A stretch of 64,000 nt of DNA, taken from the NCBI GenBank assembly GCA_051362555.1, contig CM120643.1, positions 14,482,644 through 14,546,643 of the forward strand, given 5' to 3'. A model generated the notes under the pieces. The model worked only from the letters and a program-made list of their open reading frames with translations, ran no database searches and was not told where the DNA came from. A program made the position numbers and the translations under genes. Below, in pieces: positions 17,198 to 59,807 of the stretch; within the stretch, counting starts at the first letter, position 1, and each line of letters begins with the position of its first letter. This stretch comes from Lingula anatina. Its lineage: Eukaryota > Animalia > Brachiopoda.

Positions 17198-20100
17198 TTA
17201 CATATTTTTGGCCATGGAGTAAAAATCTCCGTAGTATCTCGCAGCGTTGTTACCGCAACCGTTTTCCACGGTGCTGACGTAGTACTGATGGGCACCATCG
17301 CCGCTGTTTCCATGGCAACACAACTGGGTGCCATATTTGTACACGTTGCCATCGCAACAGCCACTGGCGAAGCCGATGTACTGGGAGGTGCCGCAGACTG
17401 GGGCGAAGAAGTTGTCTCGATCGCCTGGGCTGAGTTTGTACTGGGTGCCACCCATGGCGAAGTCACGGTAGAAAGCTTCATTGTAAAGCTGTGTGTAGGC
17501 GTTGCTGTCGATATTGTAGAGTTGGACGCCATCGCAGACCATGTCGCCTATGTGGTAGATGGTGGTTCCGCCGCAGCACTCAAATCTGAAGAAAAGGCAT
17601 TTTAAATTTTACATATTACACAGAGGAAATGTTTTCAAAGTTTCGACTTTACAATATTAATGTTACCAACCCACTCATTGATAGTTTTTCAACAATTTAC
17701 GATACGTGAAGCAAGCATTAATAACACTTTAATACACCTAATTCATATTTAGCTGCGCTCAAGCATTTATGAGGCAAAATGACTGGGACTACTATGGATG
17801 ATAAGACGGTTTGTGTGAAACTGATATTCGGAGCGATATAAAATGTATTCGTAAAATGAATTGACACTCTTCCACTTTCTTAACGTCATTAACCCATGAT
17901 ACATTTTTCAAACCCGTTAATATAAACTGACCCCCATGAATCAGACGACTTATGCACTCATCAACCCGTAATGTGTATTGACCCGCCTCCCCCCCCCCCC
18001 CAAACCCCATTCCCAAATTTGCTATTGACAAAATTTATCAGTCGTTATTTAAACGATAAACAATGAACCCACCCACGCCTTACACACACCCTTTACCCAC
18101 GTCAAGCACCGGTACTCACCCATCATAAGAATACACACTGCCGCCGCAGCAACCCTGTGTCTTGTGGTCGTAGAAGTTACCCGAGCAGGAGGCCTGGTAG
18201 ACGGGAGAGTATTCCTGAAGAGCGCCGTTCACGCACTGCTGGTTGGCCTTGGCGTAGACGCCGTAGCCTGGGCAGCATTTGTGAGTGCCGTAAACGTATG
18301 TGGTGCCGTCACAGCAGCCCTGGTAGCGGGGGTCGTAGTAAAAGTTGCCGCAGCTGGAATGGAGGGGAAATTACGGTGTATTTTCCCTGGATCATCTTGT
18401 GTTATGTAAATGATCGTTGCTATATTTTCCAGTGCGATCTCTAATATTTTATATTACTTTTACCTAAGTAGCGGCCAAGTTCTTAAATATATCTTGTGAG
18501 TAATATTGAAACTTATAAATGAATAAATTTAAGAACTCATAATTGCAACTTACATAGTTTTAATATCCCACAAACAACACAGACGACGTACATTCCCTTA
18601 TTGCTTAGTCTATGGCTAAAGATAGGTAATGTAATAAATTCAACATCAAATAAATATTAGGGGCTATTACCATATAGAAATCTTAGATTTGGAGTTACGA
18701 TAATGGTTAAATCACCCCACCCTACCAGTCAATTGTCTCTGTACAGATATCTTACCTTTTTCTAAATCCGTGACTGAGATAGCCGACCACGAGGGGGGCG
18801 GCGTCGGCTCCAGCGTTATCGTAGTAGAAACCATCGGCGCTGAATCCGAAGTCGCTGTCCAATTTGGGGTCGGAGCCCTGAACTACGGCTGGGGCGTTGT
18901 TGACGGTCTGAGACACCACGGCCCCTACTGGCTGCCCAGCCCCAATACCGCTGACGTACATGCCGGGCCCTTGGTTGCCGACATTGCTGGTGTACATACC
19001 GGGCCCTTGGTTGACGACATTGTTGGTGTACATGCCTGGTCCTTGGTTTACAACGGCAGGTCCGGCGTCTTCGTCTGGTTTTTGATCACCCTCATCTACG
19101 GCGGCCTGGCGTGCGCCCGGCACAACGGCTCCGTCAGGTACGAAGCGAGCGGGCTGCTGCTGACCGACCAGACCCTGTCCGTAAACGGAAGCAGTGGGAA
19201 GTTGACCTGGTGCTGGGCCGTAGACGCCGGCGTTGATGGCGGTGCGCAATAGATTGGAGTACACGGGGCTGTTCGCAATGGCGCCTCTGAGGAGAGGAGC
19301 GCCCCCTCTCAGGAGGGACCCGACGTTGGGCATGGCTGGCAAGTTGATAGCTCCGGTATTGCCAGTGTACTGGAGGGCGTTGTTGGGGAAGAGGCCAAGT
19401 TGAGTGTTGTAAAGAGGGGTGGGGCCGCTTCTGGCTGGGCTGCTTGGAGCAGTAGCGCCTGTGTAGACAGGGACAGGGGAGGGTCCGCCCGCAGTTGCCT
19501 GAGAGGTGGAGTCGTAGGCATTGGTGTTGCTTGCAGTACCAGAGTACACTGGGGGTCTGTAGTTGCTGATCGTGCTGTCCCCGTACACTGTGCTAGTAGC
19601 GCCAGAAGGAGGTGGCCTGTTCACGTTGGAGTACACTGGGGGTCTGTAGTTGATGCTAGTGCCGTCTCCGTACACTGTGCTAGTAGTGCCGTAGGTAGGT
19701 GGCCTGTACACGTTGGCGTTCCCAACAGTTGGGTTTCCTTGGTATGCGCCGTCAAGGGGCAGAGGATCACTGGGTTCGGCGGGCACTTCGAAGGACCTGG
19801 CGTCTGTTGAGACTGCTCCTTCGTCCACGGACGGACCGCTGCGGTCGCTGAATCTGGTAGTGGAAGAATACACGGAGGTGACGCCGTTGGTGGAGGAATA
19901 AGTGGTTGGACGGCTGCTTGCGACTGGGGAACGGTAGACGGAGGTGCCGGTGTCTCCCGCAGGGATGGTGCTCACCAGGCTGCCGCTAGGGTCGTAGACC
20001 TCGGTAGGTATGTTGTCGAGATTAAGGCCGTAGCTAGTGCCGACGTCACCGTAGGTCGCTCCCAGGTTGTTTCCAAGCCCGCCGCTGTAGAAGCTGTCAC

Positions 20101-20626
20101 CAAGGCCGACGTCTCCGCCGTAGAAACCGCTAGTGTCACCGCCGTAAATGCCAGCGTCGCCGCCGTAAATGCCAGCGTCACCGCTGTAAATACCAGCGTC
20201 TCCGCCGTAAACGCCGACATCTCCATATAATTTACCACCGTAAAGGGAACCGACGCCAGTACCGTAAGTGCCAGCGCCGTAGCTGAAAGCAGGGCTGGTG
20301 TACGCTGGACCACCGTAAGCAGGGGTTACACCGAAGCCATAACCCCCAGGGCGTGGGACACCGAAATTAAAACTGGCTGGAGAGGCGAGGTTAGCGTTAA
20401 GACCTGGCATACGAATGCCAGCAGCGGAGAAAAAGCGACTCAGGCCGCTGTTATCGAGGTAGTTTGGGTACCCACCCGCAACACCGCCGGCAGCGATGCC
20501 TGAGAGCCCGTGGTTGTACAGGCCAGCCCCATATCCTCCGTACCCTGAGTTTCCTATGTGCAAGCTGTATACTCTGTCTAAGACGGCCAACGCAAGGCAC
20601 AGCGTTAAGGTGAGTCTGAAGGCCAT
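17198..20626 (-). CDS. Cluster gene A: secreted Gly/Tyr/Pro-rich protein with three C-terminal galaxin-like di-Cys modules (~830 aa)
   Basis: complement join(20626-18756,18353-18120,17585-17198) = 2493 nt. GT-AG introns, both phase 2. Signal peptide MAFRLTLTLCLALAVLDRVYS. Repeats GGDAGIY, YRPP and NQGPGMY. Cys region begins CGNFYYDPRYQGCCDGTTYVYGTHKCCPG. Exon 2 is absent from the ORF track. Confidence 0.88.
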
Positions 20627-20707
20627 GTTGTTACGTAAAGACTGCCTTGTCCCCTACCTGCAGTCACAGACTTGTTCGGCGGTCCCTAGCAAAGAACCTT
20701 GATCTAC

Positions 20708-20740
20708 GAATGACTAAGTTTCCTTCAAGGCCCTTATATA
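20708..20740 (-). promoter_or_regulatory. TATA box plus initiator of gene A
   Basis: Minus-strand TATATAAG (20740-20733) with TCATTC (20713-20708) about 29 nt downstream, ~85 nt before the ATG. Confidence 0.65.
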
Positions 20741-21269: not shown

Positions 21270-21271
21270 TT

Positions 21272-21313
<42 letters not shown>
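21270..21313. repeat. (TTTA)n microsatellite
   Basis: Directly visible. Confidence 0.85.
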
Positions 21314-21314
<1 letters not shown>

Positions 21315-24307
21315 CGGTAAATAAAGATCTGAACAATCCGAACAAATCTTGTCATTTGCAAAAGTATTTGGACGCATCTTGTGCGGAATGCTTTCTTCAC
21401 TGCGAAACGCACCGTTGTAGCCTTTCAGCTTATTTATTTGTATTTCTATTTTTATTCATTTATTTATTGCACAAGTGCACCGTCACTCTTATATTGGGAA
21501 TACAATGTATGCATCAAGGTATAAATAAACCCAGATGCGCGTACCTCATAAGTGTATATTTTCCACATATTCCATTTGATCCGTTATTTTTTGATAGATT
21601 TTACCATTTCAGTTTGTATCATACCGTTTTCATCGTTATTCTAATACATCCCCGATAAAAAGATCGCCCATAGATAATAGCTGTGTTATATTAACGTGCA
21701 GTGCTAAGATTAATTGTATAATTTAGTTTTTGATTAGGTCTTGGTGAGCAAAGATTAAGGTGAGACTACTCTCATTTACATGTTCCAGATTGATAACGTA
21801 GATTCTTTGGCAAATAAAACCTTCACAAACCGTGTGAATTTGACGTTGAAAAATTGAAATCATTCCGAGTTATCCGTCGTAATTTGCCAGTATTGACAGC
21901 TTAAAAAGTGTGTTCAATGTTTTTTTTTCTTCTTTTCTGTCAAGATAGAGCAAGTCCCGTAATCGATAAAGGTTATATACAATTTAGATATACCACATTG
22001 TGAATATCTTAATTAGTTTTTGTCATATTTAGGATACTTTTATATTTTATTATTAGATAAGAAATATTTAAAATTAATAGTGTCTTTTTTCAGTTTTATA
22101 ATAAAAAAAAATTTAGAATATTTCCTTTCTACTGATTACTTGTAAATGTAACCGCCCTTAAGCACAGCCCGGTTTTCGTATTGTCAGTAGCTTTAAAACT
22201 GAGCGATTTTGACGTTGAAAATTCCATAATCTGTGTGTGTAAATAAAATAAAGACGCAAAAATATATTAAATGTACTGAGAAAGATACCCACTTACGCAT
22301 GGATAGCTCATGAATAAGAGCCTGGGAAGAGCTTACATATCATTTCTCATAGAAGGAAATGGGTGCATTTTCATATATTAATATATGAATTTTCATATGT
22401 ATGCACACGAAAAAGTTATATAAGGAAATTTAAAAAGACACGGTTAGTAGTGCAAAAGCGTGAGAATGGGAGTGCGCGCGGAACTTAATGGAGAACATTA
22501 ACTTGATTAAGAGAACTTTCTTGATTAGACCTGATGAAGGGGTCGCGTCACGTTATCATATCTGTAAAGCTATGCATCAATGCGATTTACTCTGGAGTCT
22601 TTCACTTAAAATGAGAAAAACAGCGGACAAAAATTGTTTCTCGTGGAAATATTTACCTATCACTTTCAGTGCCAAAACCATTTGCCAAGTAATTAAAATA
22701 TCAATATTTTTTTTAGACTTTTTTGTTCTTTGCAATTAGTTACTTTAAAACTTGCGTTGATTATCTTTGAAACTATTATTTTTCAACAAGCGTTGGTTTT
22801 ACTTTATAAAATAGCTGACATTGACTTATCAATTCACAGTTTTAAAGCATGCAGCAATTTGCGTTGTTTGCAAATGTGGCCTTAAATTGGTACAATATAT
22901 TCGCTCGGTCTATTTATACATAAAAAACCTCGTTTATATAAAACGGCCGAGAGGACTCGAGTCACCTTTGGTTTGGGGTCACCTAGCACATGATGACCAC
23001 TTTAAAGGAGTTTTGGGCGGTTTTATCTCAAAGTGACCACTTACAACACGACGATGAGTCACTGAAATTGAGGAAATGGTTTATTATTGCTTGTGTGATG
23101 TTTTAAAGTACACCGAAGTTTACGCACATGAAACCTACTATCCATCATCTTGTGGGTTTGTAAATTCTTTGGCGCATGCAGGTAACGGTCTAAATTTTCT
23201 GTTGTCAAAAATTATGTTTTCTGATTGATTCCCGAAAATAATATACATGTATGTCTACTCGTTTCTCAAAATTTAAAAGGATACTCATACTTCACACTAC
23301 CTTGAAATTTTGATGGATTGATTTTTTTCTGTAACCAATTAAAAACACGAATTTCATAAATTGTAGAATGGGCAATAAATGAATAAATAATGAATGACTG
23401 CATGAATAAATATGAAAATATAGTAAATATGTAAGTACACAGATGAATGTACAAACCATAGGGTTTTCCAGAATGGGAATTTGCATTGTAATGAGAAAAT
23501 GGCGTGCACGTTTCTGCCGTTATGAACAGATCTTGTCGAGATCACCTTGCACGGTTCGCGATAGCGTAACAGGACTGTCCTTTGTTTTGTAACACTTCAA
23601 AAGCGTTGCAACAATTCATTAGGGAGGTCTTATCTACGGGAAAGCACTAACTGAAAAAAACTGCTATGACCAGATAGGCAAATGCAATCACTGAATATTG
23701 CATGCACGCACACACTCTACTGCACGCACACGTACACGTGCAAAGGTGCCCCGTTACTTATAGCACTCTTTTTATTTTTAGTTTTTTAAATTATTATTAT
23801 TATCATTTTTAAACTGGTCCTTGTTTGCCGTTTAACCTTATATTTGAGGGTTTATTTATATTTAAAGATGATTTGAAAAATGTATAGAAATGTTCCAGCG
23901 AATAATATATCTCACCTCAAAAAGTACTACAAAATGTCACTTCAATTGGGTAAAAGTATTAGAGTTACAGCAACTGAATATATATTATTAAAAGTACCAT
24001 AGCGAAATGATAACTACAGAAGATATTAATTTCATACAAAATGAGACGTATTTGGTGGCAAGCACGTAGATATGAAGTGTTGAACGTAAGCGAAAGGTTG
24101 GTGGCATAATACGAATTTTGATCATATTTTTTATACTATAAAATAGTCTGCCCCGCCCCCCATATCGTACGACCCCCCCCCCCCCTCCCCTGTGTGATCT
24201 GGTATTGCGTTGCATATAGGTGCATTTAACATTTTCCGGTGTTTTGAGCTTTAGAAATATACTTCCATAATGCTTATACCGAATGCACCTTTATCCGTCG
24301 ACAATAG

Positions 24308-24474
24308 CAGGGGCGGATTGAGGTTGTCTTCTGGAAGGCAGTCAGATTTTCAAGTTTACATTGACGGGTATCTAATTTTTTTTCTGTTGGAAGACGGTCA
24401 AAACTGGAGGATGGATCAACAAAGATACTTGTTATTTGGAAGACTGTTAGAAAATAGCTCTGTATCCACCCCTG
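24308..24474 (-). mobile_element. MITE family 1, copy 2
   Basis: CAGGGGCGGATT ... ATCCACCCCTG, reverse orientation relative to the 8561 copy. Flanked by AATAG on both sides (possible TSD). Confidence 0.85.
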
Positions 24475-26122: not shown

Positions 26123-28090
26123 CTATCGTCCTTGATTGCTGTTCTGTTGGCCGTATGGACTGGTTCCATAATTGGTGCTGGGGTTTGAGTAACTGTTCTG
26201 ATTACCGTACAGACTGGATTGACTTCCGCCCACGTTGTTCGGTGAATAACTGCTGGACGATGTCCCAGAGGGTGTGTTAGAAGGGGAGCCATTGTTCTGG
26301 AGAACAGGGACGCCGTTATAGATAGGAGTGCCAGGCGGAGCTGGGTTAAAGTTGTTTCCTAAGCCAGTCTGTGTAAACTGAGACGGTTTCACGTTGTTTA
26401 AAGTGTACGTATTTGTACGCGGTGCTGCTCCTGGGAGATTACTGTAGGCGCCGGTGTACGCAGCGTACGGGCTGTATCCGTTCTGAGTCTGTACGCCATA
26501 GGGACTGCGACTGTAGATCGGACTGGGACTGTTGTACTTGGCGACAGGCCGTTGATAGCCACCACCGATCTGCCCGCTGTTGCCGTAATTGCTCGTTGGG
26601 TTTCCCGTGTAGCTATTGCCTCCAGTGTACGAGCCTTGGCCGCCAGTATAGCTGGGGGATCCAGTCAAGGTACCTTGATTACCATTATAATTTGGGGTAC
26701 CGGTTAACGTGCCCTGGCCGCCGTTGTAGCTTGGTGTGTTTGTGTACTGGCCTTGACCTCCGGTGTAACTTGGGACTTGACCACCATTGTAGTTAGGGAC
26801 GCCAGTGTTGTATTGCCCCTGGTTGCCTGTAAGGGTGCCTTGGCCACCGTTGTAATTTGGAGAACCAGTTAAAGTACCTTGCCCGCCCGTGTAGCTTGGT
26901 CCGCCCGTGTAAGACCCTTGTCCGCCAATTAAAGTGGGTGTGCCTGTAAGGGTGCCTTGTCCGCCATTGTAGCTCGGAGTGCCTGTATATTGGCCTTGTT
27001 GTCCAGCATTATAAGTTGGAGTGCCTGTGTAAGAACCTTGGCCGCCATTGTAATTTGGAGAACCAGTCAAAGTACCTTGCCCGCCTGTGTAGCTTGGTAC
27101 GCCCGTGTAGGAACCCTGGCCTCCTGTATAACTGGGAGCGCCTGTAAATGTGCCTTGACCGCCATTGTAAGTCGGAGCGCCGGTAAACTGACCTTGGCCG
27201 CCCAAATTGTAGTTAGGGGAGCCTGTCAAAGCCCCCTGGCCGCCATTATAGACAGGAGCTACAGCCTGACCGCCGTTGTAGGCGGGCACGCTACCATATC
27301 CACCCTGACCCCCTGTTATAGATCCCGTGTACAAACCTGGAATACTACCCTGATTTCCGCCATAGGGAGTTTGGGAGCCGAGATACTGGCCTTGAGGGGG
27401 GCCCTGTGGGGTGTTATAACTTGGCACCGCGCCTTGGTAAGGGCCCTGTACTGTATTGATAGGTTGGTTGGCAGTATACCTGCCGCCATTTGCTGGGATT
27501 TGGCCGTACTGTGCGCCGCCCGTGTATTGCGTGGGACTGGGGACTACCCCGGGAACACCAGCAGGTGCCCCGCCTGTGAACTGTGGGGTTCCAAAGCTTC
27601 CTGGCAAACCTCCGTAGCTGACTCCTGGGATCTGTCCGCCGGCGTTGTAACCACCGGGAGCGGGGCCCGCCGGGAGTCCTTGGTACTGACCTACGGCAGG
27701 TAGACCCTGGTATTGTCCGGTCGGGGAGACACCCAGGACACCTCCATATTGCTGGGCAGGACCTCCCGGGGGTGCTGTCAGATATTGCCCCGGACCGCCT
27801 GCTGGGAGACCGGGCTGGGCATACGGGCTGTAATGAGGAGCTACGCCTGGGTACTGACCTTGGGGAGCGTAGGGCCCAGCCGACGGGGCGCCGAGTGGAG
27901 AATACTGTGGCAGCGGTGGCTCATCTAGCCCATAGCTTGCTAGCTGGTCCCTACGCGTCCCTGGGATACCGGTTGTGGCGTAGTCAGTGTAGTCGGAATA
28001 TCCGTCTGGACTTGGAGCGGCGCCTGCTTCTAGGTGGTTGGCGGAGGCGCAGACAGCAAGTAGAGAAAAGGCTAGCCAAACTAGCGCCAT
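26123..28090 (-). CDS. Cluster gene B: secreted Gly/Tyr/Gln/Pro/Thr-rich low-complexity protein (655 aa, single coding exon, no Cys module)
   Basis: Long GC-rich ORF. Signal peptide MALVWLAFSLLAVCASA. Imperfect 13-aa repeats Y(N/T)GGQG(T/S)(L/Y)TG(S/T)P(N/S). Almost no charged residues after about aa 60. Confidence 0.88.
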   Translation of the reverse strand: MALVWLAFSLLAVCASANHLEAGAAPSPDGYSDYTDYATTGIPGTRRDQLASYGLDEPPLPQYSPLGAPSAGPYAPQGQYPGVAPHYSPYAQPGLPAGGPGQYLTAPPGGPAQQYGGVLGVSPTGQYQGLPAVGQYQGLPAGPAPGGYNAGGQIPGVSYGGLPGSFGTPQFTGGAPAGVPGVVPSPTQYTGGAQYGQIPANGGRYTANQPINTVQGPYQGAVPSYNTPQGPPQGQYLGSQTPYGGNQGSIPGLYTGSITGGQGGYGSVPAYNGGQAVAPVYNGGQGALTGSPNYNLGGQGQFTGAPTYNGGQGTFTGAPSYTGGQGSYTGVPSYTGGQGTLTGSPNYNGGQGSYTGTPTYNAGQQGQYTGTPSYNGGQGTLTGTPTLIGGQGSYTGGPSYTGGQGTLTGSPNYNGGQGTLTGNQGQYNTGVPNYNGGQVPSYTGGQGQYTNTPSYNGGQGTLTGTPNYNGNQGTLTGSPSYTGGQGSYTGGNSYTGNPTSNYGNSGQIGGGYQRPVAKYNSPSPIYSRSPYGVQTQNGYSPYAAYTGAYSNLPGAAPRTNTYTLNNVKPSQFTQTGLGNNFNPAPPGTPIYNGVPVLQNNGSPSNTPSGTSSSSYSPNNVGGSQSSLYGNQNSYSNPSTNYGTSPYGQQNSNQGR

Positions 28091-31591: not shown

Positions 31592-31806
31592 CCATTTCCA
31601 TAGATTTTTAGATCGATCTATCCCTGTGGGGAGTCTCACTAGATTACTGTCAGCTTGGCCGGCTTAAGCGTCTGTCCCGCCCACTAAAAGCTGTAAGGGG
31701 GTAATTATCTATGGTGCCCGCTCGGCTGACTGCAATTTAGTGTGAACCCCCAGGGAGTTAGGTCGATCTAAATCTTAATCTTTAGATCGATCTAAATCTC
31801 TGGGAA
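31592..31806. mobile_element. MITE family 3, copy 1
   Basis: TTCCATAGATTTTTAGATCGATC ... GATCGATCTAAATCTCTGGGAA inverted ends. Reverse-complement homolog at 57504-57718. Confidence 0.8.
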
Positions 31807-32099
31807 AGCACCCTTAAACTGCCAGTTTGAAAAGCAGTCTTGCGGACCATTTATAATTTTGTGCCATTCTTCCCAAAATAGAAGAATAATGTACATGCAT
31901 CAGGCGCGTTTATCAGTCCCCAAGATAAGCGGGATTCTTTGATTCAGTGTCCATAAATGTTAAATACGGATTTAATCTTTTACAGAAAGTACAAAGAAAG
32001 AACACAGTTTAATTTCTCTTTCCAATAGAGGTCACCAGGGTCGCCGCTACAAATAAGGCGCAGCTCCAGCACCCTGGAACTGATTCTGCCCTGGCGACT

Positions 32100-34065
32100 C
32101 TAATATGGGGCAGGGGCTTTGGGCTTTTTGGGATAGAGTGGTCTTGGTAGGATGGATCTGCACTGTTCACCGAAGGCTTTGTCAATCACGTAACCGTTTC
32201 CACAGCAATCTTGGGTTTTCCTATTGTACACGTACTCGTGGGCGCAGCATCCCTCCGTCTTGGTATCATAAACCTTTGAACCGCACCTGAGAGAAAACGT
32301 ATTTAAAAAAATGTCACAAATTATCTCATTCCTGTATTTGATCCCTTTATCCGGGGATTCTCAGTAAAGGGGCCCAGTCAATGTAACCAGCTCAATTGTC
32401 TGGTTCTCGTCATCGCAAAGCAACACGAAAAACATCATGGATCACAAAGATTTCCCAACTGTACCAAATACTTTAAGTTTCAATTACATTGACTACTCCT
32501 TAGCGAGAACCCTGCTGCAATAGATCGATCGTCATAATACGATAACTTCTATTCTGAACACAGTCTTAATTTGGTTACTTGCCATAAAGAGAGAGAGAGA
32601 GCACATAGAAGCGAAGGGTTGTTCTAAGTCTTACCTGCCACCGTAGTTGCTTCGATATTTGTATCCAGCATCCGGAGCATAACCAGGATCAGCAGGAGCA
32701 GGGGCGTACCCAGCATCTGGGGCATAACCAGGATCAGCATGGGCGTAACCAGCATCAGGGGCATAACCAGGATCAGCAGGGGCGTACCCAGCATCGGGTG
32801 CATAACCAGGATCAGCAGGGGCGTAACCGGCATCCGGAGCATAACCAGGATCAGTAGGAGCAGGGGCGTACCCAGCATCTGGGGCATAACCAGGATCAGC
32901 AGGGGCGTAACCAGGATCCGGGGCATAACCAGGATCAGCAGGGGCGTATCCAGCATCCTGAGCATAACCAGGATCAGCAGGAGCAGGGGCGTACCCAGCA
33001 TCTGGGGCATAACCAGGATCAGCAGGGGCGTAACCAGCATCCGGGGCATAACCAGGATCAGCAGGAGCAGGGGCGTAACCACCATCCGGAGCATAACCAG
33101 GATCAGCAGGAGCAGGGGCGTACCCAGCATCGGGCGCATAACCAGGATCAGCAGGGGCGTAATCAGCATCCGGAGCATAACCAGGATCAGCAGGAGCAGG
33201 GGCGTAACCAGCATCCGGAGCATAAGCAGGATCAGCAGGGGCGTAACCAGCATCCGGAGCATAACCAGGATCAGCGACGTAGCCTGCAGGTTTACCAACT
33301 AGGTACTTCTTGCCCCTGCATTGTTCACCTTTGGCCTTCTCAATAATGTACTCATTGTCGCAGCAGTCCTGTACCTTCCTGTTGTACACATGTTTATAGC
33401 CACAGCATCCCTCAGTCATAGTGTTGTACACATTCTTGCCACATCTGTGCGAGAAAAAATCGTACTTCATTTACCTGGGATCTCCATCTTTTACAGTAAA
33501 GTATATAACAAAAGAAATATATTAGTTAAGGTTTGACTAAGAAAGGAATGGATCAGTAGAATCTAAACCTAAAGATAAATTTTCATGTGCACAAACAAAA
33601 AAAATTGCAAATTTCTTACTTTCCAGCGTAGATGGCTGGGTTGGTATAAACAGGCTTTTTGGTGTAAGCAGGTGCCGGAGCATAGCCAGGGTCAGCAGCG
33701 GGGTAAGGAGCATCCTTAGCATATCCAGGACCAGCAGCGGGGTAAGGAGCGTCCTTAGCATATCCAGGACCAGCAGCGGGGTAAGGAGCATCCTTAGCAT
33801 ATCCAGGACCAGCAGCGGCGTAGGGAGCGTCCTTAGCATAGCCAGGATCAGCGGCGGCGTACCCAGCATAGCCCGCCGGATCAGCGGCGTAATTAGCACC
33901 ACCCAAACCAGCGTATACAGGGAATTTCACACCAGTGGATGCTTTACCTTTGGCGTATCGGCTGGCTCTGGAGTACCCACCTATTGTTAGAAAGTTGGAT
34001 GTTGCACTGTCAAGAGCAAGGGCTGTTAAGACAGCCAGCACTGTGACCACCTGCATCGAACCCAT
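32100..34065 (-). CDS. Cluster gene C: secreted Ala/Pro/Gly/Tyr/Asp repeat protein with two galaxin-like modules (~480 aa)
   Basis: complement join(34065-33620,33444-32635,32286-32100) = 1443 nt, GT-AG, both introns phase 2. Order: signal peptide, AAGPGYAKDAPYP repeats, module CGKNVYNTMTEGCCG..., GYAPDAGYAP(AP)ADP repeats, module CGSKVYDTKTEGCCA..., tail PKKPKAPAPY*. Confidence 0.88.
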
Positions 34066-35505: not shown

Positions 35506-35684
35506 CAGGGGTGGATTGAGGCCGTCTTCTGGGTCTTCCGAAACACACAGATTTTCAAGTTTACATTGCCCGATATATATTTTTTTACCGTCGGAAGACG
35601 GTCAAAAATGGAGGATGGATCAACAAAGATAATTTGGAAGACTGTATTGGAAGAAAGTATATCTGGTTCCTGGATCTGCCCCTG
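35506..35684 (-). mobile_element. MITE family 1, copy 3 (nested in another short repeat)
   Basis: CAGGGGTGGATT ... GGATCTGCCCCTG. The flanks are homologous to the uninterrupted sequence at ~29838-29911 (inverted). Confidence 0.85.
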
Positions 35685-41786: not shown

Positions 41787-44700
41787 TTACTGATACGGGT
41801 ATCCCCTGACTTGGTTCCTGGCCTGCTGTCCAACACCGCTGTTCATCTTGTTAGACCTCATTACGTAGGAAGGGACAGTTATCCCATTCGTTGAGGCACC
41901 GTTGTTGTTTCCCACTTGTTTCTTTTGGGAGTTGTTCCCAGAGTTACCACTGGAGTATCCAGGCGTATTGGAGTCGTAACCAGGAGTAGTTGGGCCATAC
42001 GACGGACCATTTCCGTTCCCAGAATTGCCGTAAGACGAGGACATACCATTTCCAGAGTTCATTGGTTTGTAACCATTAGAATTTGGGGGATACGATGGAC
42101 CATTTCCGTTCCCAGAGTTACCCCCATTTGACATCTTCATCATTGAATCACCATTGGTGCCATATCCAGTCATTTTGGGTGGATAACTATTAGGAGCTTT
42201 GTTTTGACCGTTAGACGATGACATACCATTTCCAGAGTTCATTGGTTTGTAACCATTAGAATTTGGAGGATAGGATGGACCATTTCCGTTCACAGAGTTG
42301 CGCCCATTCGACATCTTCATCATTGAATCACCATTAGTGCTGTATCCAGTCATTTTGGGTGGATAACTATTGGGAGCTTTGTTTTGACCGTTAGACGAGG
42401 ACATACCATTTCCAGAGTTCATTGGTTTGTAACCATTAGAATTTGGGGGATACGATGGACCATTTCCATTCCCAAAGTTACCCCCATTTGACATCTTCAT
42501 CATTGAATCACCATTGGTGCCGTATCCAGTCATTTTGGGTTTATAACTGTTAGGAGCTTTGTTTTGGCCGTTCGACGAGGACATACCATTTCCAGAGTTC
42601 ATGGGTTTGTAACCATTAGAATTTGGGGGATAGGATGGACCATTTCCGTTCACAGAGTTGCGCCCATTCGACATCTTCATCATTGAATCACCATTAGTGC
42701 TGTATCCAGTTATTTTGGGTGGATAACTATTAGAGGCTTTGTTTTGGCCGTTAGACGATGGCATACCATTTCCAGAGTTCATTGGTTTGTAACCATTAGA
42801 ATTTGGGGGATACGATGGACCATTTCCATTCCCAGAGTTACCCCCATTTGACATCTTCATCATTGAATCACCATTGGTGCCGTATCCAGTCATTTTGGGT
42901 TTATAACTGTTATGAGCTTTGTTTTGGCCGTTCGACGAGGACATACCATTTCCAGAGTTCATGGGTTTGTAACCATTTGAATTTGGGGGATAGGATGGAC
43001 CATTTCCGTTCACAGAGTTGCGCCCATTCGACTTCTTCATCATTGAATCACCATTAGTGCTGTATCCAGTCATTTTGGGTGGATAACTATTAGAGGCTTT
43101 GTTTTGGCCATTAGACGATGGCATACCATTTCCAGAGTTCATTGGTTTGTAACCATTAGAATTTGGGGGGTAGGATAGACCATTTCCATTCCCAGAATTG
43201 CGCCCATTTAACATCTTCTTCATTGAATCACCATTGGTGCCATATCCAGTCATTTTGGGTTTATAACTATTAGGGGCTTTGTTTTGGCCGTTAGACGATG
43301 ACATACCATTTCCAGAGTTCATTGATTTGTGCCCATTAGAATTTGGGGGATAGGATAGACCATTTCCATTCCCAGAGTTGAGCCCATTTAACATCTTCTT
43401 CATCATTGAATCACCATTGGTGCCGTATCCAGTCATTTGTGGTTTATAACTATTAGGGGCTTTGTTTTGGCCGTTAGACGATGACATACCATTTCCAGAG
43501 TTCATTGATTTGTGCCCATTAGAATTTGGGGGATAGGATAGACCATTTCCATTCCCAGAGTTGAGCCCATTTAACATCTTCTTCATCATTGAATCACCAT
43601 TGGTGCCGTATCCAGTCATTTGTGGTTTATAACTATTAGGGGCTTTGTTTTGGCCGTTAGACGAGGTCATACCATTTCCAGAGTTCATTGATTTGTGCCC
43701 ATTAGAATTTGGGGGATAGGATGGACCATTTCCATTCCCAGAATTGCGCCCATTGGACATCTTCATCATTGAATCACCATTGGTGCCGTATCCAGTCATT
43801 TGTGGTTTATAACTATTAGGGGCTTTGTTTTGGCCGTTCGACGATGACTTACCATTTCCAGAGTTACTTGATTTGTGCCCATTAGAATTTGGGGGGTAGG
43901 ATAGACCATTTCCATTCCCAGAGTTGCGCCCATTCGACATCTTCATCATTGAATCACCATTGGTGCCATATCCAGTCATTTTGGGTTTATAACTATTGGG
44001 GGCTTTGTTTTGGCCGTTAGACGATAACATACCATTTCCAGAGTTCATTGATTTGTGTCCATTAGAATTTGGGGGGTAGGATAAACCATTTCCATTTCCA
44101 GAGTTGCGCCCATTCGACATCTTCATCATTGAATCACCATTGGTGCCGTATCCAGTCATTTTGGGTTTATAACTATTGGGGGCTTTGTTTTGGCCGTTAG
44201 ACGATGACATACCATTTCCAGAGTTCATTGATTTGTGCCCATTAGAATTTGGAGGATAGGACAGACCATTTCCATTCCCAGAATTGCGCCCATTTGACAT
44301 CTTCATCATTGAATCACCATTGGTGCCGTATCCAGTCATCATTGAATTGCCAGCGGTGCTGTATCCCTTTAATTTAGGTATGTAACCATACAATGTTTTA
44401 GGCTTACCGTTATCGTTAGCGGTTTTAGATTGACCGTTAGACGATGACATCCCATTTCCAGAGGGCATGGGCTTGTTCCCATTAGAATTTGGGGGGTACG
44501 AAGGACCATTGCCATTCCCAGAGTTGCGCCCATTTGACATCTTCATCATTGAATCACCATTTGTGCCGTATCCAGTCATCTTGGGTTTGTTACCATTCAT
44601 TATTTTAGGCTGATAGTAACTTGGAGTCATTGAATCGTAGCCCTCAGTTGTTGGGCCGTATGTCATGGAATCGTAGCCACTAGTTGTTGGACCGTTATAT

Positions 44701-47036
44701 ACATTACTGTCATACCCAGTTGACTTCATTTGGGAATCCTCGTATCCAATCATTTTTGGTTTACCGTTCGACGAGGTACTGCCATAGCTTGGAGTGGTGG
44801 AATCATACCCATTAGTAGGTGGTTGGTAGTAGTTGTTGTTGCCTTGTTGGGTCTGCCTTTGTGTATCGTAAGAAGATGGCGGGTAGCCATATCGTAGTCC
44901 ACGTTCGCCTAGGCATTGCTTCGGCTTTGTGACGATATAGACGTTGTTGCAGCAATCTTGGGTGGAAAGTGTGTAAACCTTTTCATTGCAGCATCCCTCT
45001 AAACTAGTGTCATACTGGCCATCGCCACAACTGGAATGAAGAATATTAAGGGGGAGTCAATAAAATTATGAAAATGCAACTGTTCTAATTTTCTATTTAA
45101 ATATAATAAACCTTCCTAACGTCCAGCAACGTCCAGTATTTTTTTTTTTTTTTGGGGGGGGGGAGGGAGAGAGAAAATACCGTTTTCAGTTTTAAGGTTC
45201 TCTTTAGCACCAGGACAACTTCAGTGCATCTAAATGATTTAAAAGGCAATATAAAGCTTGGAAAAAAACACTGTCAAATGATATCACAAGGTCATCTATT
45301 ATGATATCCTTCGGATTTTTCCGGCTTTCCTTTGAAATCACTCCAAATGGGATTTTCACTTCAAAAAGTGATAACTTACAAGCAAACAATTTCCCCTTTA
45401 AGGTTATTTCACGGACAGCCCTTTTCTTGTGGCGCGTTAAAGTATGTATTTTATTAATGTTGTTGTTCATAAAAATGGACTCTTTTGTCACTTTTATATA
45501 TTTTGAGTACACTGTAAGTGAGTTCCTAAAAGGGATTTGATAATAAGCAGGAATAAGTTTTGACAATTGGAGAGATTTCAGTGTCCCTTGCAATGCTTAC
45601 AAAAACCCAGGATGGGAGGAAAAAGGTTTTATACCCGTAAGCCTTACAAACTATAAAGTAGATTGAAACCTAAAACATTATAATTGCAATGTGATTAGAA
45701 TAAATTACCTTCCCATATATATGTATGGATCAACAACTTCATATCCATATCCGTACCTGCTGGAAGGACCATTGGTGTTTCCATAGCCATTGGAGTCTCC
45801 GTTGCCATTACTGCCATAGGGGTCTTGGGTGTCTCCATAGCCATTGGAGTCTCCGTTGCCATTACTGCCATATGGGTCTTGAGTGTCTCCATAGCCATTG
45901 GAGTCTCCGTTGCCATTACTGCCATAGGGGTCTTGGGTGTCTCCATAGCCATTCGAGTCTCCGTTGCCATTACTGCCATATGGGTCTTGGGTGTCTCCAT
46001 AGCCATTGGAGTCTCCGTTGCCATTGCTGCCATATGGGTCTTGGGTGTCTCCATAGCCATTGGAGTCTCCGTTGCCATTGCTGCCATATGGGTCTTGGGT
46101 GTCTCCATAGCCATTGGAGTCTCCGTTGCCATTGCTGCCATAGGGGTCTTGGGTGTCTCCATAGCCATTGGAGTCCCCGTTGCCGTTGCTGCCATAGGGG
46201 TCTTGGGTGTCTCCATAGCCATTGGAGTCCCCGTTGCCATTACTGCCATAGGGGTCTTGAGTGTCTCCATAGCCATTGGAGTCTCCGTTGCCATTACTGC
46301 CATATGGGTCTTGGGTGTCTCCATAGCCATTGGAGTCTCCATTGCCATTACTGCTATATGGGTCTTGGGTGTCTCCATAGCCATTGGAGTCTCCGTTGCC
46401 ATTACTGCTATATGGGTCTTGGGTGTCTCCATAGCCATCACTGCCATATGGGTCTTGGGTGTCTCCATAGCCATCACTGCCATAGGGGTCTTGGGTGTCT
46501 CCATAGCCATCACTGCCATAGGGGTCTTGGGTATCTCCATAGCCATTTGAGTCCCCATTGCCATTACTGCTATATGGGTCTTGGGTGTCTCCATAGCCAT
46601 CATTGCCATATGGGTCTTCTGTGTCACCATAACCATTGGAGTCTCCGTTGTCATTACTGCTATATGGGTCTTGGGAGTCTCCATAGCCATTACTGCCATA
46701 GGGGTCTTCTGTGTCTCCATAGCCATTGGAGTCTCCGTTGCCATTACTGCTATATGGGTCTTGGGTGTCTCCATAGCCATCACTGCCATATGGGTCTTCT
46801 GTGTCACCATAACCATTGGAGTCTCCGTTGTCATCACTGCCATAAGGGTCTTGGGTGTCTCCATAGCCATTGGAGTCTCCGTTGCTATATGGGTCTTGGG
46901 TGTCTCCATAGCTTGACGAACTGCCATAGCTGCTAGAGTCAACGTAGCGAGCCTGGGAACCGCCCGAATGCTTTGACCATGGTGCACTGAATAGTGCTAT
47001 GGCAACAAGCAGCATGCGCGCATGCCCTGCTGTCAT
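41787..47036 (-). CDS. Cluster gene D: secreted diblock repeat protein (acidic 18-aa repeats, one galaxin-like module, basic 60-aa repeats), ~1,523 aa
   Basis: complement join(47036-45709,45030-41787) = 4572 nt. Donor AG|GTAAT, acceptor TTCCAG|T TGT GGC, phase 2. The exon-2 start CGDGQYDTSLEGCCNEKVYTLSTQDCCNNVYIVTKPKQC reads without a stop into the 988-aa ORF. Signal peptide MTAGHARMLLVAIALFSAPWS. Confidence 0.88.
41990..44590 (-). repeat. Coding tandem repeat, 180-nt (60-aa) unit, ~14 copies
   Basis: Unit KMTGYGTNGDSMMKMSNGRNSGNGNGPSYPPNSNGYKPMNSGNGMSSSNGQNKAPNSYKP. Near-identical text recurs at 42061, 42241 and 42421. Confidence 0.95.
45780..46915 (-). repeat. Coding tandem repeat, 54-nt (18-aa) and 36-nt (12-aa) units
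   Basis: Units GDTQDPYGSNGNGDSNGY and GDTQDPYGSDGY. Confidence 0.95.
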
Positions 47037-51706: not shown

Positions 51707-51872
51707 AAGGGGCGGATCCAGAGATATATTCTGACAGTCTTCCAAATTATCTTTATTGATCTATCCTCCATTTTTGACCGTCTTCCAACAGAAAAAAATT
51801 AGATACCCGTCAATGTAAACTTGAAAATCTGACCGTCTTCCAGGAGACCCAGAAGACGGCCTAAATCCGCCC
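51707..51872 (+). mobile_element. MITE family 1, copy 4
   Basis: AGGGGCGGATCCAGAGATA ... CCTAAATCCGCCC with the shared interior. Confidence 0.85.
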
Positions 51873-51963: not shown

Positions 51964-54900
51964 CGGGGACTCTCGCTGAATTCAATCAGATAAAGGTCTA
52001 ACTCGCCTCCTGTTTCCAATATACTCGTGCAATCACCAGCTTCTCTGTATTCAACTCAATAGTCAGTCTGTAGAACTATAAAGTAAGCACAAATTCGATC
52101 AATGTAATAAAAAAATTAACATCATCTTTCCCTTTTTCTCTATAACATATTGTGCAAAGTGTGCCTTCTATCTCTTTATAAACAAATTAACAAATAATGA
52201 GAACGATAGCACCTGAAACGATGGATTAAACTATTCAAGAAAACATAGAATAGATAAAAGTAGTACAGTAGGCGCATCTGTTAATAGAATTCCACAGCTG
52301 TCTAATGTCGATGCATGTTTCTTTTGTTATACACTGTACAGTTAGTTTAACTATGTTAAAAATATAAGTATGGCAAGCACACTCGACGGTCATGTTTGAC
52401 TTTCCCAGGTGAAATTATATTCGGTGCATAACATAAAGATGATGATTAAGGAGTACTTTAAGATATGCTTTTTATGTTACCAAGAGAAATGTTGTTTTCT
52501 TTTTTTGCGCAGTTTCACTATTATTAATAAAATATTTCATATTTATCTTAAAACTGTCACTCGTGACACCGGAATATGCGGCAGAAAAAATGTTGAAATG
52601 CTCTTCACAATTGCTGAATAACTATGTAACCCTTCAAGAGATATTGTGAGGGAAAAAACGTAAATCCATTCGTTCTCGTAATTTCGAACGCAATGCTAAG
52701 ATTTCGTAACAGCACCGAGTTTTTAATTCTAAATTTCTCTTCCACCGCTCTTCCACCGCTCTGCAGTACCTTTTCTTCCTCCTCTAATCTGTACTTTTCT
52801 TTCTCTCTCTCTTTCTGAGCTCGCGCGGGTGGGGTGTGCGTGCATGCGTGTGCGTGCAAGCGTGCGTGCGCCTGCTTTTTGTGTTTATTGCGTATGTATG
52901 CATGAGCATTTGTATGTGAGTACGAAGTGTTTTACATACGTTCTCTGCACCTGCATACCTTCTGGTGCCTGAGACATCCATCAACCTACCAAAACCCGTA
53001 ATTACTAAACTATTACCCTCGTGTCTTGACTATGACCTGTGCTGATGCCCCACTAGCAAATTACACTTGTCACACAAACTCTGTACAACAGTGTCCGTAT
53101 TGGCGAGTAGGAGAATTACGAACGTTTAGGGGAGGTGAATGGACAATTTGCTAGATCATGGACTAGCAGCGGAAAAGGTCAGATTGTGACTTGGCCCGCC
53201 GTCCCACTTGAAGAGATAGCGTTTGACGTTCCTGTTGGCTCTTTCCGAGGCCGTCGCTCCGCGGGTCACAGGTGAGACGATTGTTTTGCGGGTCTTCTAA
53301 TTATATTTCTATAAAGGTGTAATTTGAAAGAAAATACATTTTGAAAAGAAAAAGGGATAGATAGTTGAAATTTGTGGCGTTTCTGAAGCAAATGAGTTCA
53401 CCACCATATTCTGTCAACGTTGCAGATGTTTATTTGAAAGATGAAAGAACTTACGTTTTTAATCTGGAGATTCCTTGCTGTGTGAATGTGTGGGTTTTTT
53501 TAAAAATTATTATTCTCCTTAACGAGCATTAACTTCTAGAGTAAGATGTGATCAGTTACAGTTCAGCTTTCACCACTTGACTTTATATTGTTAAAACAAA
53601 ACCATGTACAATATGGTTAATTGACTTTTGAGGAAAAAAAGCGGTACAACCTATACTAGTACGTTATTGGTATATTTTCAACAATCAACACATGAGCCAC
53701 GTTTAAAAAATAGAACAGCAGTCGATGTGCCAGACGGTCCTGCCTCCCCGCCACAAAAGGCGTATTCGTCTGCATTTAAGTTTGTGAAAAATCGCAGTTT
53801 CCATCTACGAACAGATAATGCTTTAATGACATGCATTTTACTTTTAATAAAGACGTTGGAAAAATTACTATTTACTCCTCACAGCGTTGATACGAGCAAA
53901 ACTTCCTTTCTATACTTAACTTCGCGAAAATTTCCGTGGAATTATTTATTTATTATAATACCGATTAATTTTTTTCATTGGTGTATCATAACATGTTTGA
54001 GACATTAATAAGGACGTTTTTAAATCTCGCCGCCTTAAACATACACTTTAACTTTTCTACGCAACACTGTGTTACTGATTTAAACCAGGGTCACAGCTAA
54101 CCTATATATACACACTGTATATTAGTAATACATGTTTGTCTCTAGATTATTTGCAGTTAGAGAGAGAAAACAGGAAACTCTTTCTGTCACCACATCTTCG
54201 TAGATGTATGAACAGGATCTGAAACTTGAGTTACGTGTTGTCTAGTGGACGCCATTTTGTTACATCACTCTGTTTAAAATGGATTTCTATCATAAAATAT
54301 TTCCAGTTATGTTAAGCTGAATATTGCGGGTGACGTTCTCTATCTTTTATGAAGCGCATTTTAACGCGTACTTATTACAAACAACTAATACCTTTGTTTG
54401 AAAATTTGTACAAAATTATGCAAAGATCACTCAAGTAAAATGGTCATTTCTAATGTCTTTCCCATTTCAGTACTTTGGTCAACGTTAGTTTCATATATAG
54501 GCCTACATGTAGTGTCTTTGTGCAGGGTCCATCATCGGTAACAATTTTGCTTTCAACATTTATCAACCCATCTCGGAAGTTCCATTGTTCATTTTTGTCT
54601 GTAACTAATATTCTAATGGAAGTCATTTATAGAGAATTTTAGCGCGTATTTATTACACTCAACTAATACTTTTGTGCGATGGACATTTGTTTCACGACCC
54701 TTGGAGATAGCATCTGTCCATACATTATTTGCCAAAAACAATAACATCTGTCTTTACCACTTGGTCCTTCTTCAGCTCACAATATTTAGTATTCATCTTT
54801 TTTCCGACGCAACACCTCCTTGCCTACGATAAGGCGGTTAAATGACACTTCTTCGTGCTTCATTCACAACACGCTTATTGTTTAATGACCTTCGGGTGCA

Positions 54901-57503
54901 TGGGGACGGGCATGTTAGATGTCTTCTACCTTTAATTGGTGCACTCACGGCTCTACGAACCACGCTAACAACTTTAACCAGCACTGTCGCATTTTTCTCT
55001 TTTGCGCTTTAGCTTGTGTATTCTTATCTTTAAGGTTCCATGCGGTGCTTTTCTCTTTAATTATCAGTTGTTACCGAGTAATTTTACCGGTTGGGGAGAG
55101 CAGACGACAAAGTTCGGATAAAATCCATACCATGCCCACCATTTTCGCGCCCAAGAAAGTATGGAAACGTTTCGGACATTTTGATGTATTACTGGATTTC
55201 TTATTTCTTACTAAGTGAAACGTTCAGTGGATTTTCCCTTTATCTTATTAAAAGCTTGAACACAATATTCAAGTTTCTTCTTCGGTTTTTTTCATTGCAG
55301 CTTCAAAATTTAACTAATCGATTGGTTAGAAGTTTCATATATTTTTAAAATTTCGGTTTGAATCATATTACTGTATTACAGTTGGAATAGGTCCTTTAAC
55401 ATCGTGATTAAGATCTTCTCCCTAGATAGCCTCCCCAGTGATAGGGTCATTTTTACCCGATGATTTGAATTTTACGGCCATTTATATGTCATTCTTTGGG
55501 CGGGTGGCAATAACTCTCCCCACAGTTTTCAAAGTATTGCAGGAAACCCTATTAAGTCTTTTTAAAATCGTCTCTTTATTATTTTTGTCTCATTTTAAAA
55601 TACATGTATCTACCTAAACGACATTAAGCAGGAAAATCTCTTTTTGATCTGCTCACATTTCGGAATGCTAGTGTTTCACGCAGAGTAGATAATCGTAGGG
55701 ATTTGTCAGTATCTTCTTCCTTTCATGTACTGTATATTCTGACACGTTTAGATGTTTGATTCTACCCTTGTTATTCTGCTGCCTTATTGAGGTATGTATC
55801 ATCAGTATCTTGTTTACTTCACCGCGTTTGCTGATTTAACTTTACTAGTAACAGGTTCAGTTTAGCAAAAGCGAGTCAGTTGAGTTGAAATTACTGAAAG
55901 TTTTGCTTACATTTCTCACTCTCGTTGTCTTTTTTATTCATGACTTGCCATTTTTAAAGACATTCGTATGTCTCCGTAGTTAGTATCACCCTATATGAAA
56001 TAGTTTCCTGGACTGACGTTGTTTTGAATCCAAATATTCCAAATGCCTGTCAAGAAAACTTGATCGCATGTTTAGTTGCACCTTTTTAATGAAAATGACT
56101 TCCGTCTGTTCAGATATTCCATTCTTACGCAAACTGAAAATGCGGAGTAGTAGGCTTACATGCGAAATCCCATTCTACCTAAATAAGTAGAAAAATATGT
56201 GGTTTTAAAACATTAAATCATGTTGTGCTTTGGGCTTGGTAGTTAATAGGAGAATCGGTGGTAAGTAAAAAAAAAATGGTTGGACACAGTTTATTTTTAA
56301 GCTTTAAGAACATTTTCTCTGCAAAAAAAAAAAAACAATGTAAAAAAACAATGGCACTGCCCATTTCATGTACTGTAATGCTAATACCATTAATAGAAAT
56401 ATTTGAAGAAGAGGAAGATGCTTTTTGTTGAACTGTTTGCATTGGTTTGAAGTAATATGTTGCATGCCATGGGGGGGGGGGGGGGGGGCGAGTAACAGGC
56501 ACAGGTCTGTGTTTTTGAAAAGATTCATGTATTGGGGCATGTAAAATTGGTCCTAATATGTATGAAGTTAGTTGCAGTGTTGCTTTCATAGTCACTTTTG
56601 TTATATAAATTGGCAGTTTGAGAGATAATACGTGCTAGATGGGGTCAAAAATTGATACATTGTCTGTGTGTCCACCACATAATCGACTTGTCTGTTCATT
56701 TAACAATGTAGAAAACAATTTTGGTCTCATCAAACCTCATTCCAGCTCGAATTACCACGAGTTTAAACTCTGGCAGGTCCAATCCAACTCTGTCAATCAT
56801 CGTACCGCCCGGCCATTACACTTGCTAGGCCGAGACTTGCGGAGAATATTATGAATAAACATTGGCAGGGGAAATGTCGTAAAGTAGATTTCAGCTTTAA
56901 ATTTAGAATAGAAGTTTGGTGAACAGACTAACTGTTGTATCTTCTTTGCCATGAAGCATTAAAAGGTCTGGTATTTACTTAATATATTTATATATAGAAT
57001 AAGGGTACATGTATGTTTTTAAGGACAGTTTGCGGTTTAAGGTTAGTCAGCTATATGCTCTTTTAAAACAATAGATGTCCCCAGATTTGGACACTGTCAC
57101 TATATGCGTGTGCTAAACTGCAAACTATTCCGAGATCATATCTTGCAAGAAAATAAATACATTTTTGCACTCTCACTTAAATCATAAACTATCATATTTA
57201 AGGATATCTCTTCGCTTTCAAGAAGCAAAGTATACACGCACAACTCACGTGTCCGTTTGTGCTTTTAGAAAAAGCTGGTTGATCAGTCACTAGATAAACT
57301 ATAGAGATTTTATGGACTAAAACATTGATCGAAAGGATTAGATAAACTTACAAAGATCACTTTGTGTTTTATTTTCTTGATCGTTAACATCATTTCTTTA
57401 GCAGCATGGTTTTGATTTAAGATTGAGACTAAAATGACGATTTCTTTGAATTCCTTGTCTCTTGTACCATGTCCTTACTATGACAGAGAAGTTTCAGACT
57501 GAG

Positions 57504-57718
57504 TTCCCACAGATTTAGATCGATCCATCCGGATCGACCTTACTCCCTGGGGGTTCACGCTAAATTGCTGTCAGCTTCCGGGAGACTAGCGCGCACAAAA
57601 GTTAATTACCCCCTTACAGCTTTTAGTAGGCGGGACAGACATTTAAGCCGGCTAAGCTGACAGCAATCTAGTGAGACTCCCCAGGGGGATAGATCGATCT
57701 AAATATCTGTGGGAATGG
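57504..57718. mobile_element. MITE family 3, copy 2
   Basis: TTCCCACAGATTTAGATCGATC ... GATCGATCTAAATATCTGTGGGAA. Inverted homolog of 31592-31806. Confidence 0.8.
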
Positions 57719-58189
57719 TCTCTTAGTAGCAGTCCGATGAATGCACACATGTTTTTACTCGTGATATTAGTACATGGTCATGTTTTACCATAATAATGAC
57801 ATGGCCCTTTCTGTACAGTTGAATAATTTTGGTCATGTTTTTGTGAAAGAAGAAATACAAAAGGAAAAAGACAAAAACTGTTTTTATTATTCATCACTTG
57901 CATTGTATTGTTACTCAGGAAAATGGAAATGACGTAATAGAAACAGCACGAGATGCGTATTTAAATGTGTATGTTTAATACAGACACACAAAACTGTTTG
58001 AAAACATTTTATTCTTTTTTCAAGTAAGAATTTTTACCATATTTAAAGTGTCTCTTCTACGACGTAATTTTTGAAAGAAAAAATTAATAAAAAAAACGCA
58101 ACAGCGCCAAGTTAGAAACCTGGATATCCATTGGACATATCATATTTTCTAAATATATTGTCTATTTTCAGTTTAACATTGTCTCCAGC

Positions 58190-59807
58190 ATGGCGAAGAG
58201 GATGTGCCTCTTGGTCGTAGGTGTGCTGCTATTGGCTGGATCCAGTCACGAGTCAGGTTTTCAGGGGAACAAGATCGTCGCCTCCCTCGATATTGTACCG
58301 AGAGAGACGATTCCAGTCGTGCCATCATATTCTATTCAACTGGATGGACCTGTTACAGTGAATGCATTATCTTCTGCCTCCTATTACCAGTCTTTATCGG
58401 ATCCAAAGAGACTCCCTAGAACCAGGTAGGCTACATACATGTACAAAACTTTCTTCATCCAAAGGCGGACACACGGGCACAAGGTGCAAAAGTAACTTAC
58501 TTCAGACCCACTTCAATACTTGGAAATGCAGAATTGCCGAGCAAACCAAATTACATATTCACAACCTTGTGCTCTTCCCTACCCTTTTACACCCTAGCTT
58601 GTTTTTATTTTTTGTTTGTCAAAGTCACCTTCAAATGTGCAATACATAAATCACAGATATACTAGCAGATGCGTTTTGGTAGAATACGACTAAAATGAAA
58701 GAGACACATAATGAAGTCTACTATAGTTTATTAGTTCTTTCTTGTCTTGCTGCATCAGTCCATTATTTCAACCCGTTTCTTCTCTTCAGATGTGACCGCG
58801 TCAATGAGTACGACACCAAGTCTCAGGCCTGTTGTGGACAATCCACCACCCTTCCCAACGGCGTCAGGTGTTGTCAAGGCAACGTATACAACAAGGCGGC
58901 CCAGTTCTGCTATCGAGGCGTGGTCCACTACTACTTGGACTTCAATCCGATTCAACAACCACGTCCCAAATGTGGCCAGTATTACTATCACTACCAAGAT
59001 CAGGCCTGTTGCGCCGGCAAGATCTATATCCCAGCCAGCCAGGGGTGTTGCAACAACGTGGTCTTTACCTACGCGACACAGATGTGCGTCGGCGGACAAG
59101 TGCGAGAACATAATTCCTACGCCCCATGTCCAGGATTCCACACCGATCACCCGTCGCAATACGGTTGCTGCAATGGCGTCTCGTACTTGTACAGCACGAA
59201 GGGATGTTGCCAAGGCAATGTGTACGACCTTGACGTGAGCAAGTGCACCAAGGACACGCTGACTGTTCATAGGGACGGAAAAAAGCGCTGTGGCGGGCAG
59301 GTTTACATCCAGCACAACCTCAGCTGCTGCCGAGGACTGCTCTACGATCACAACAAACAGACTTGCTGCGAGGGGCGCGTCCTCAATGCGACCACCATGT
59401 ACTGCCAAGAAGGCCGCGGGCTCAGATATGACAAAATGGTGCTCTGTGGCGCGATGCAGTACGACCCCACGCGCTTCGGCTGTTGTCATGGTGATCCCTT
59501 TGATCCTCGTCACCAGGGCTGCTGCGCCTATACTGTGTTTTGGAAGAACCAGTACACGTGTACCAATGGTTACCTGTACCCCGTGGCCGCTGATCCGGTC
59601 GGATCCGGAAACCAGATGCCATATTGCGATGACGAAGCGTTTGATCCTTCCAAGGGCAAGAGATGCTGTGGCAAGCTGACGTATAAAACCGGGTTTGAGA
59701 GCTGCTGTGGCCAGAACCCCTACTTCAGAGCACGACAGGTCTGCTGTGAGAGCGATAACGGCCAGTATTTCAGAAGATCCAGAATGGTCGGTTGCAGAAG
59801 TTTTTAA
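58190..59807 (+). CDS. Cluster gene E: secreted galaxin-like protein with six di-Cys modules (~417 aa)
   Basis: join(58190-58425,58790-59807) = 1254 nt. Donor AG|GTAGG, acceptor TTCTCTTCAG|A TGT, phase 2. Signal peptide MAKRMCLLVVGVLLLAGSS. Tandem C-x11-CC-x11-CC-x11-C units with the CC-x4-Y pattern typical of galaxin-like repeats. An acceptor at 58171 suggests an upstream 5'UTR exon. Confidence 0.9.

Follow-up and report, generated by a model that had tools for sequence, protein, structure and literature searches.

A predicted phase-2 intron one base before the first cysteine codon is shared by galaxin-like genes clustered in the Lingula anatina genome

Galaxin-like genes are clustered in a 64,000-nucleotide stretch of the brachiopod Lingula anatina genome (GenBank assembly GCA_051362555.1, contig CM120643.1, positions 14,482,644 to 14,546,643 of the forward strand), referred to below as the window. 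In four of these genes, designated A, C, D and E, splice signals place a phase-2 intron one base before the first cysteine codon of a cysteine-rich module. Gene C carries the arrangement twice, giving five junctions. The arrangement is confirmed and unlikely to be due to chance. The intron was likely inherited in tandem paralogues while repeats turned over within the exons, which would be ordinary gene-family evolution. Close paralogues are described as retaining their intron positions (PMC2996940).

A first-pass annotation, made from the sequence alone, had placed six coding junctions in the cluster. All six were found at those coordinates and letters, with GT donors, pyrimidine-rich CAG acceptors and phase 2 in every case. 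At five of them (A, C1, C2, D and E) a single base separates the cut from the first Cys codon in a module, as had been claimed, and the split codon encodes Ser, Lys, Arg, Ser and Arg, respectively, followed by Cys. Candidate GT sites were ranked against the general splice-donor consensus. Each donor falls on the last codon of its upstream reading frame (6/6), and no other GT site in that frame matches the consensus better (6/6). The acceptors are the CAG with the highest pyrimidine count among in-frame AGs from -90 to +45 (6/6). The spliced frames are open over 830 (A), 480 (C), 1523 (D) and 417 (E) amino acids (aa). Gene E is the RefSeq L. anatina 'galaxin-like' gene XP_013387023/24 (also P0001), which supports the E junction with 414/417 residues identical; database model P0085 has the same junction.

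The sixth intron, 18120/17585 in gene A, is phase 2 as described, and it lies inside module A2, between the two CC pairs. Whether it is the sole other coding intron of the cluster, as the first-pass annotation held, hinges on where E starts. In database model P0086, E starts further upstream, with an exon of 13 codons from an ATG that is joined to the rest of the gene across a 4994-nt phase-0 intron. The features of the cluster, in positions of the window, are as follows.

18756..20626, minus strand: gene A, coding exon 1; predicted signal peptide and 600-aa low-complexity region of Gly/Ser/Ala/Pro/Tyr carrying repeats of 21, 36 and 87 bp; phase-2 donor AAG/GTAAGA at the 3' end
18354..18755, minus strand: gene A, predicted intron 1; 402 nt, phase 2, 1 base 5' of the first module Cys
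18120..18353, minus strand: gene A, exon 2; 234 nt, 2-2; module A1 and first half of A2
17586..18119, minus strand: gene A, predicted intron 2; 534 nt, phase 2, within module A2, away from the conserved position
17198..17585, minus strand: gene A, exon 3; remainder of A2, module A3, stop
26123..28090, minus strand: gene B; one 655-aa open frame with predicted signal and Gly/Pro/Thr/Tyr/Gln repeats, without Cys module
33620..34065, minus strand: gene C, exon 1; predicted signal and Ala/Pro/Gly/Tyr 39-bp repeat; phase-2 donor AAA/GTAAGA
33445..33619, minus strand: gene C, predicted intron 1; 175 nt, phase 2
32635..33444, minus strand: gene C, exon 2; 810 nt, 2-2; module C1, exon-3-like tail, exon-1-like repeat and 3' end
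32287..32634, minus strand: gene C, predicted intron 2; 348 nt, phase 2
32100..32286, minus strand: gene C, exon 3; module C2, short tail, stop
45709..47036, minus strand: gene D, exon 1; predicted signal and acidic Gly/Asp/Ser/Tyr/Asn repeat; phase-2 donor AAG/GTAATT
45031..45708, minus strand: gene D, predicted intron; 678 nt, phase 2
41787..45030, minus strand: gene D, exon 2; module D1, basic Asn/Gly/Ser 180-bp repeat x12.8, stop
53139..53177, plus strand: gene E, upstream exon of database model P0086; phase-0 splice to 58172
58190..58425, plus strand: gene E, first coding exon as modelled in RefSeq; 56-aa spacer after a predicted signal; phase-2 donor CAG/GTAGGC
58426..58789, plus strand: gene E, intron; 364 nt, phase 2; junction as in XP_013387023/24
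58790..59807, plus strand: gene E, last exon; six modules, intron-free between them

The signal peptides are hydrophobic N-termini judged by eye. The module exons match the Pfam family Galaxin_repeat (PF24748) in all four genes. The last exon of E (125 bits) and exon 2 of A (41 bits) exceed the gathering score of 28, while the exons of C and D, as single modules, fall below it (17.6-22.6 bits; E values 1e-4 to 4e-3). The unit spans ~40 aa with six cysteines in the pattern C-CC-CC-C, and the window holds 12 such modules, three in A, two in C, one in D and six in E. CC pairs number 6 in A, 4 in C, 2 in D, 13 in E and 0 in B. Cysteine makes up only 0.4-2.5% of A, C and D, which are mostly low-complexity proteins.

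Module homologues were found in cnidarians, molluscs, echinoderms, tunicates and fish. The same Cys modules are fused to Fib_succ_major in bacterial-type proteins (L001, 1-1080, plus strand, and P0005), and a metagenome scan reduced 118 candidate stretches to 1 confirmed locus, of bacterial type. The module scores against IGFL (PF14653) as well. An alignment-based structure model of the last exon of E consists of confident beta-hairpin beads joined by weak linkers (mean predicted local distance difference test score, pLDDT, 78; predicted template modelling score, pTM, 0.30). The single-sequence fold (pLDDT 35) was unusable. In the alignment-based model, the intron of E would fall where the first predicted bead begins, at its N-terminal edge. 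A sequence search found no solved relative, and Foldseek returned 0 with E values <=0.001. Granulin was the best VIA structural match (Z 3.6, root-mean-square deviation 4.7, 47 aligned) and was set aside as not meaningful.

A common module, clustering and an intron at the identical base together support the proposal that the genes are paralogues. With Cys columns excluded, modules C1, C2 and D1 are 46-61% identical. On the same basis A1 and E1 are only 23-31% identical to the C/D modules and to each other, and they score equally well or better against modules from outside the window than against those within it. Judged from these sequences, the five junctions would represent about three independent lineages (C1/C2/D, A and E); treating them as five independent events was rejected. 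Under a simple null that gives equal weight to each of the 60 nt preceding the Cys, three independent introns would share a base with P ~3e-4. The intron had been put forward as a marker of homology where the repeat blocks show none. It serves this purpose best for A and E. Homology is also evident from the module itself. The A and E modules are weakly identical, and the module tree (60 rows, 44 columns), from which P0001, P0085 and P0086 were omitted as copies of E, is unresolved, so for A and E a common origin is better attested by the intron than by the sequence.

Over the 18 nt ahead of the donor, the C1/C2/D pairs share 12, 10 and 9 of 18 positions (p 0.033, 0.023 and 0.054, uncorrected), the three highest identities and the three lowest p values of 15 anchored pairs. 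The N-termini are alike in 2/10 pairs, D-E (0/1000 shuffles scored as high) and A-D (p 0.007). No convincing similarity was seen among 15 pairs of intron sequences, where the lowest p was 0.03. These exon-1 ends of C1/C2/D and N-termini of D-E and A-D weakly fit a history in which the ends of exon 1 were retained and the interiors changed. Replacement of exon 1 through a symmetric joint is not supported, and in C and D the weakly alike exon-1 ends speak against it.

In gene C, the 5' end of exon 2 aligns with everything that exon 3 encodes, including the tail, and its 3' end aligns with the exon 1 repeat (70-75% DNA identity; E value 5e-12). The exon extends 218 residues beyond module C1. From these alignments it looks like a chimera of the coding part of the last exon and the 3' half of the first exon. 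The simplest origin would be an unequal crossover that broke within exons and so duplicated a stretch made up of repeat, intron and module.

These observations suggest the following course of events. One ancestral intron would have been passed on by tandem duplication of a 'signal + spacer / modules' gene. The low-complexity blocks would then have expanded and turned over within exons through slippage and unequal crossing-over; low-complexity repeats are described as evolving by slippage (PMC4897951). Modules would have multiplied within the last exon, intron-free, to six in E and three in A. Gene A would have acquired an unrelated phase-2 intron within a module, and C would have doubled its 'repeat - intron - module' segment via the crossover described above.

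Several results weigh against inheritance of a single intron. In the unresolved module tree the 12 window modules need 8 changes, of which the starred branches force only 1, and the C/D group takes in one outside module (support 96/61). The p values for the exon ends fail correction for 15 tests, and A and E figure in none of them. Inside exon 1, A, C, D and E have no alignable similarity, and replacement of exon 1 among the A, E and C/D lineages would be indistinguishable from saturation. Four of the five junctions (A, C1, C2 and D) are predictions from sequence.

Exon shuffling through the symmetric joint, which the first-pass annotation had proposed as an alternative to paralogy, is not supported. 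In this reading a module exon was joined to unrelated repeat first exons by recombination within the phase-2 intron, and we regard it as quite unlikely. The repeat blocks in exon 1 cannot be aligned among A, C, D and E, and repeat-only gene B is an adjoining example of a first-exon-like gene, both of which would suit it. So would an intron at a predicted domain edge, as in classical shuffled modules (PMC3488318), and two internal exons that are formally 2-2, either of which can be skipped with the frame preserved. However, the symmetric exon of A holds 1.5 modules, halving one, and that of C resembles an exonic chimera. An intron precedes 5/12 modules and the other 7/12 have none in front, so modules multiplied inside exons. 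An exon-shuffled symmetric module would have same-phase introns at both edges, but none of the 12 modules has an intron at its C-terminal edge, and four of the five module exons lack a matching 3' intron at the edge of a module. Tandem repeats expanded in exon 2 of C and D as well, where large arrays lie downstream of the modules. The likeness of the C1/C2/D exon-1 ends and of the D-E N-termini is also at odds with unrelated first exons. Finally, mobile domains favour phase-1 introns (PMC3488318), whereas the introns here are phase 2. The 2-2 symmetry was also rejected as evidence of function.

The position of the intron might instead be older or wider than the cluster, either as a family-wide galaxin-like intron or through parallel gain at a proto-splice site formed by the Lys/Arg codon before the first Cys. 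In either case it would be of little use for tracing how the cluster genes are related. The residue before the first Cys is Lys or Arg in 27/48 strict outside modules (from 26/117 homologues, many of them near-copies), MAG precedes the cut at 4/5 junctions, and A1 and E1 are no nearer to window modules than to outside ones. On the other hand, 10 break points, from 7/11 pairs of alternative models of homologues, never fall one codon before a first Cys; these come from protein models, which carry no phase, rather than from mapped introns, and three are truncated starts. Parallel gain is a minor source of shared intron positions, accounting for ~5-10% of them (PMC3488318). We consider a wider or recurrent position improbable. 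A search of the literature turned up no description of the cluster, nor of where introns fall in galaxin genes.

We also considered whether some junctions are unused, the first exons of A, C or D being stand-alone repeat genes like B that stop in the donor. Every upstream frame does stop at its donor, but such a stop would follow automatically from a phase-2 GTRA donor, and the in-frame stops were rejected as evidence of function. A database search for models of A, C and D retrieved none, although the search was weak and its candidates crowded. No reads crossed the D junction in four same-species RNA runs, which hardly covered the gene (0, 0, 11 and 1 reads, none across or near the junction). 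Against disuse, the donors are the best of their frames, the acceptors open straight onto intact modules, and E, with the same layout, matches RefSeq. That any of these junctions is unused is very improbable. The 11 reads of run X7 are 90-95% alike at 44489-44632 and have a loose end that resembles the 180-bp repeat of D. They may come from a divergent allele or paralogue with a shorter spacer, expressed at a low level.

Gene B is possibly a member of the cluster. Its exact sequence was not found in the protein collection searched. It ends GGA CG/A TAG, that is Gly-basic-stop, as the unspliced forms of C1, C2 and D do, with A where these have the donor G. The resemblance was noticed post hoc; Gly-Lys or Gly-Arg occurs at 2/654 dipeptides of B. 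A hidden or decayed module was sought with a hidden Markov model in six frames, and none was found after B or elsewhere in the window. A lost splice donor in B is possible and serves only as a lead. With low probability, the phase-2 joint not only marks the family but also acts as a switch, and B is a repeat-only form fixed by donor loss. If so, intron retention would always end the protein at the donor and yield a secreted repeat-only form without the cross-linking module. The intron position would also become a character for the phylogeny of galaxin-like genes, which sequence trees do not resolve.

The cluster is flanked by a multi-exon class I tRNA synthetase gene at 1959-16371 (plus strand), with a PF00133 match on one exon, which we take to be probably the mitochondrial leucyl-tRNA synthetase gene. 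Between C and D lies an RVT_1 reverse transcriptase fragment at 36714-37124 (plus strand; E value 5e-5). Dispersed repeats of 150-240 bp with 80-88% identity are found at 8563-8729, 24303-24473, 35502-35683 and 51708-51872, and as a pair at 31592-31820 and 57490-57718. These are probably small mobile elements.

All repeat blocks except the E spacer are rich in Gly (15-24%) and Tyr (7-15%). In D, the single Cys module is flanked by a strongly acidic repeat in exon 1 (net -75) and a Met-rich, strongly basic one in exon 2 (net +65). By analogy with known systems, we lean towards the cluster genes encoding secreted matrix, structural or adhesive proteins, in which disordered Tyr/Gly-rich repeats would provide bulk and disulfide-bonded modules would cross-link or anchor. 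The architecture of signal, low-complexity region and di-Cys region is already known from coral galaxin-like proteins, which have been put forward as matrix proteins (PMC2726143). The same plan is seen in Acropora Amgalaxin-like 1 and 2, with a strongly acidic region like exon 1 of D. The Lingula proteins differ from them in having a 6-Cys C-CC-CC-C unit with spacers, present in 1-6 copies, and Gly/Tyr/Pro-rich repeats that may flank the module on both sides. Scleractinian galaxin carries an R-X-R-R endoprotease motif after the signal peptide (PMC7533068); this mark of galaxin sensu stricto is absent from 5/5 cluster proteins. Deep relations of galaxin-like proteins are poorly supported (PMC7533068). 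The PF24748 family, including coral galaxins and squid EsGal1-10, likewise consists of tandem di-Cys repeats predicted to be secreted. Squid galaxins show a lineage-specific expansion, as the Lingula cluster does, and have antimicrobial peptides (PMC12773714). Our second choice, and an unlikely one, is a mucosal or antimicrobial role.

Molluscan repetitive low-complexity domain (RLCD) shell proteins, the shematrins and KRMPs, are likewise fast-evolving secreted paralogues shaped by repeat gain, loss and slippage (PMC4897951). Their likeness to the cluster is one of description. Word searches of two Lingula shell-proteome supplements did not find the cluster genes. The supplement of PMC13425148 gave 0 matches to 'galaxin', to the accession prefixes of E and to six short motifs. 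That of PMC4595640 gave 0 for 'galaxin', and sequences borne in figures would be missed. Low-complexity proteins are under-detected in proteomics (PMC4897951).

Taken as inheritance of one intron in tandem paralogues, the cluster is a tidy, ordinary example of genes that keep an intron while their repeats turn over. Its modest use is as a marker, since genes with modules of only 20-30% identity can be brought together by the exact place of an intron. The cluster also adds, for brachiopods, a group of candidate matrix or adhesive proteins whose repeats differ widely in chemistry.

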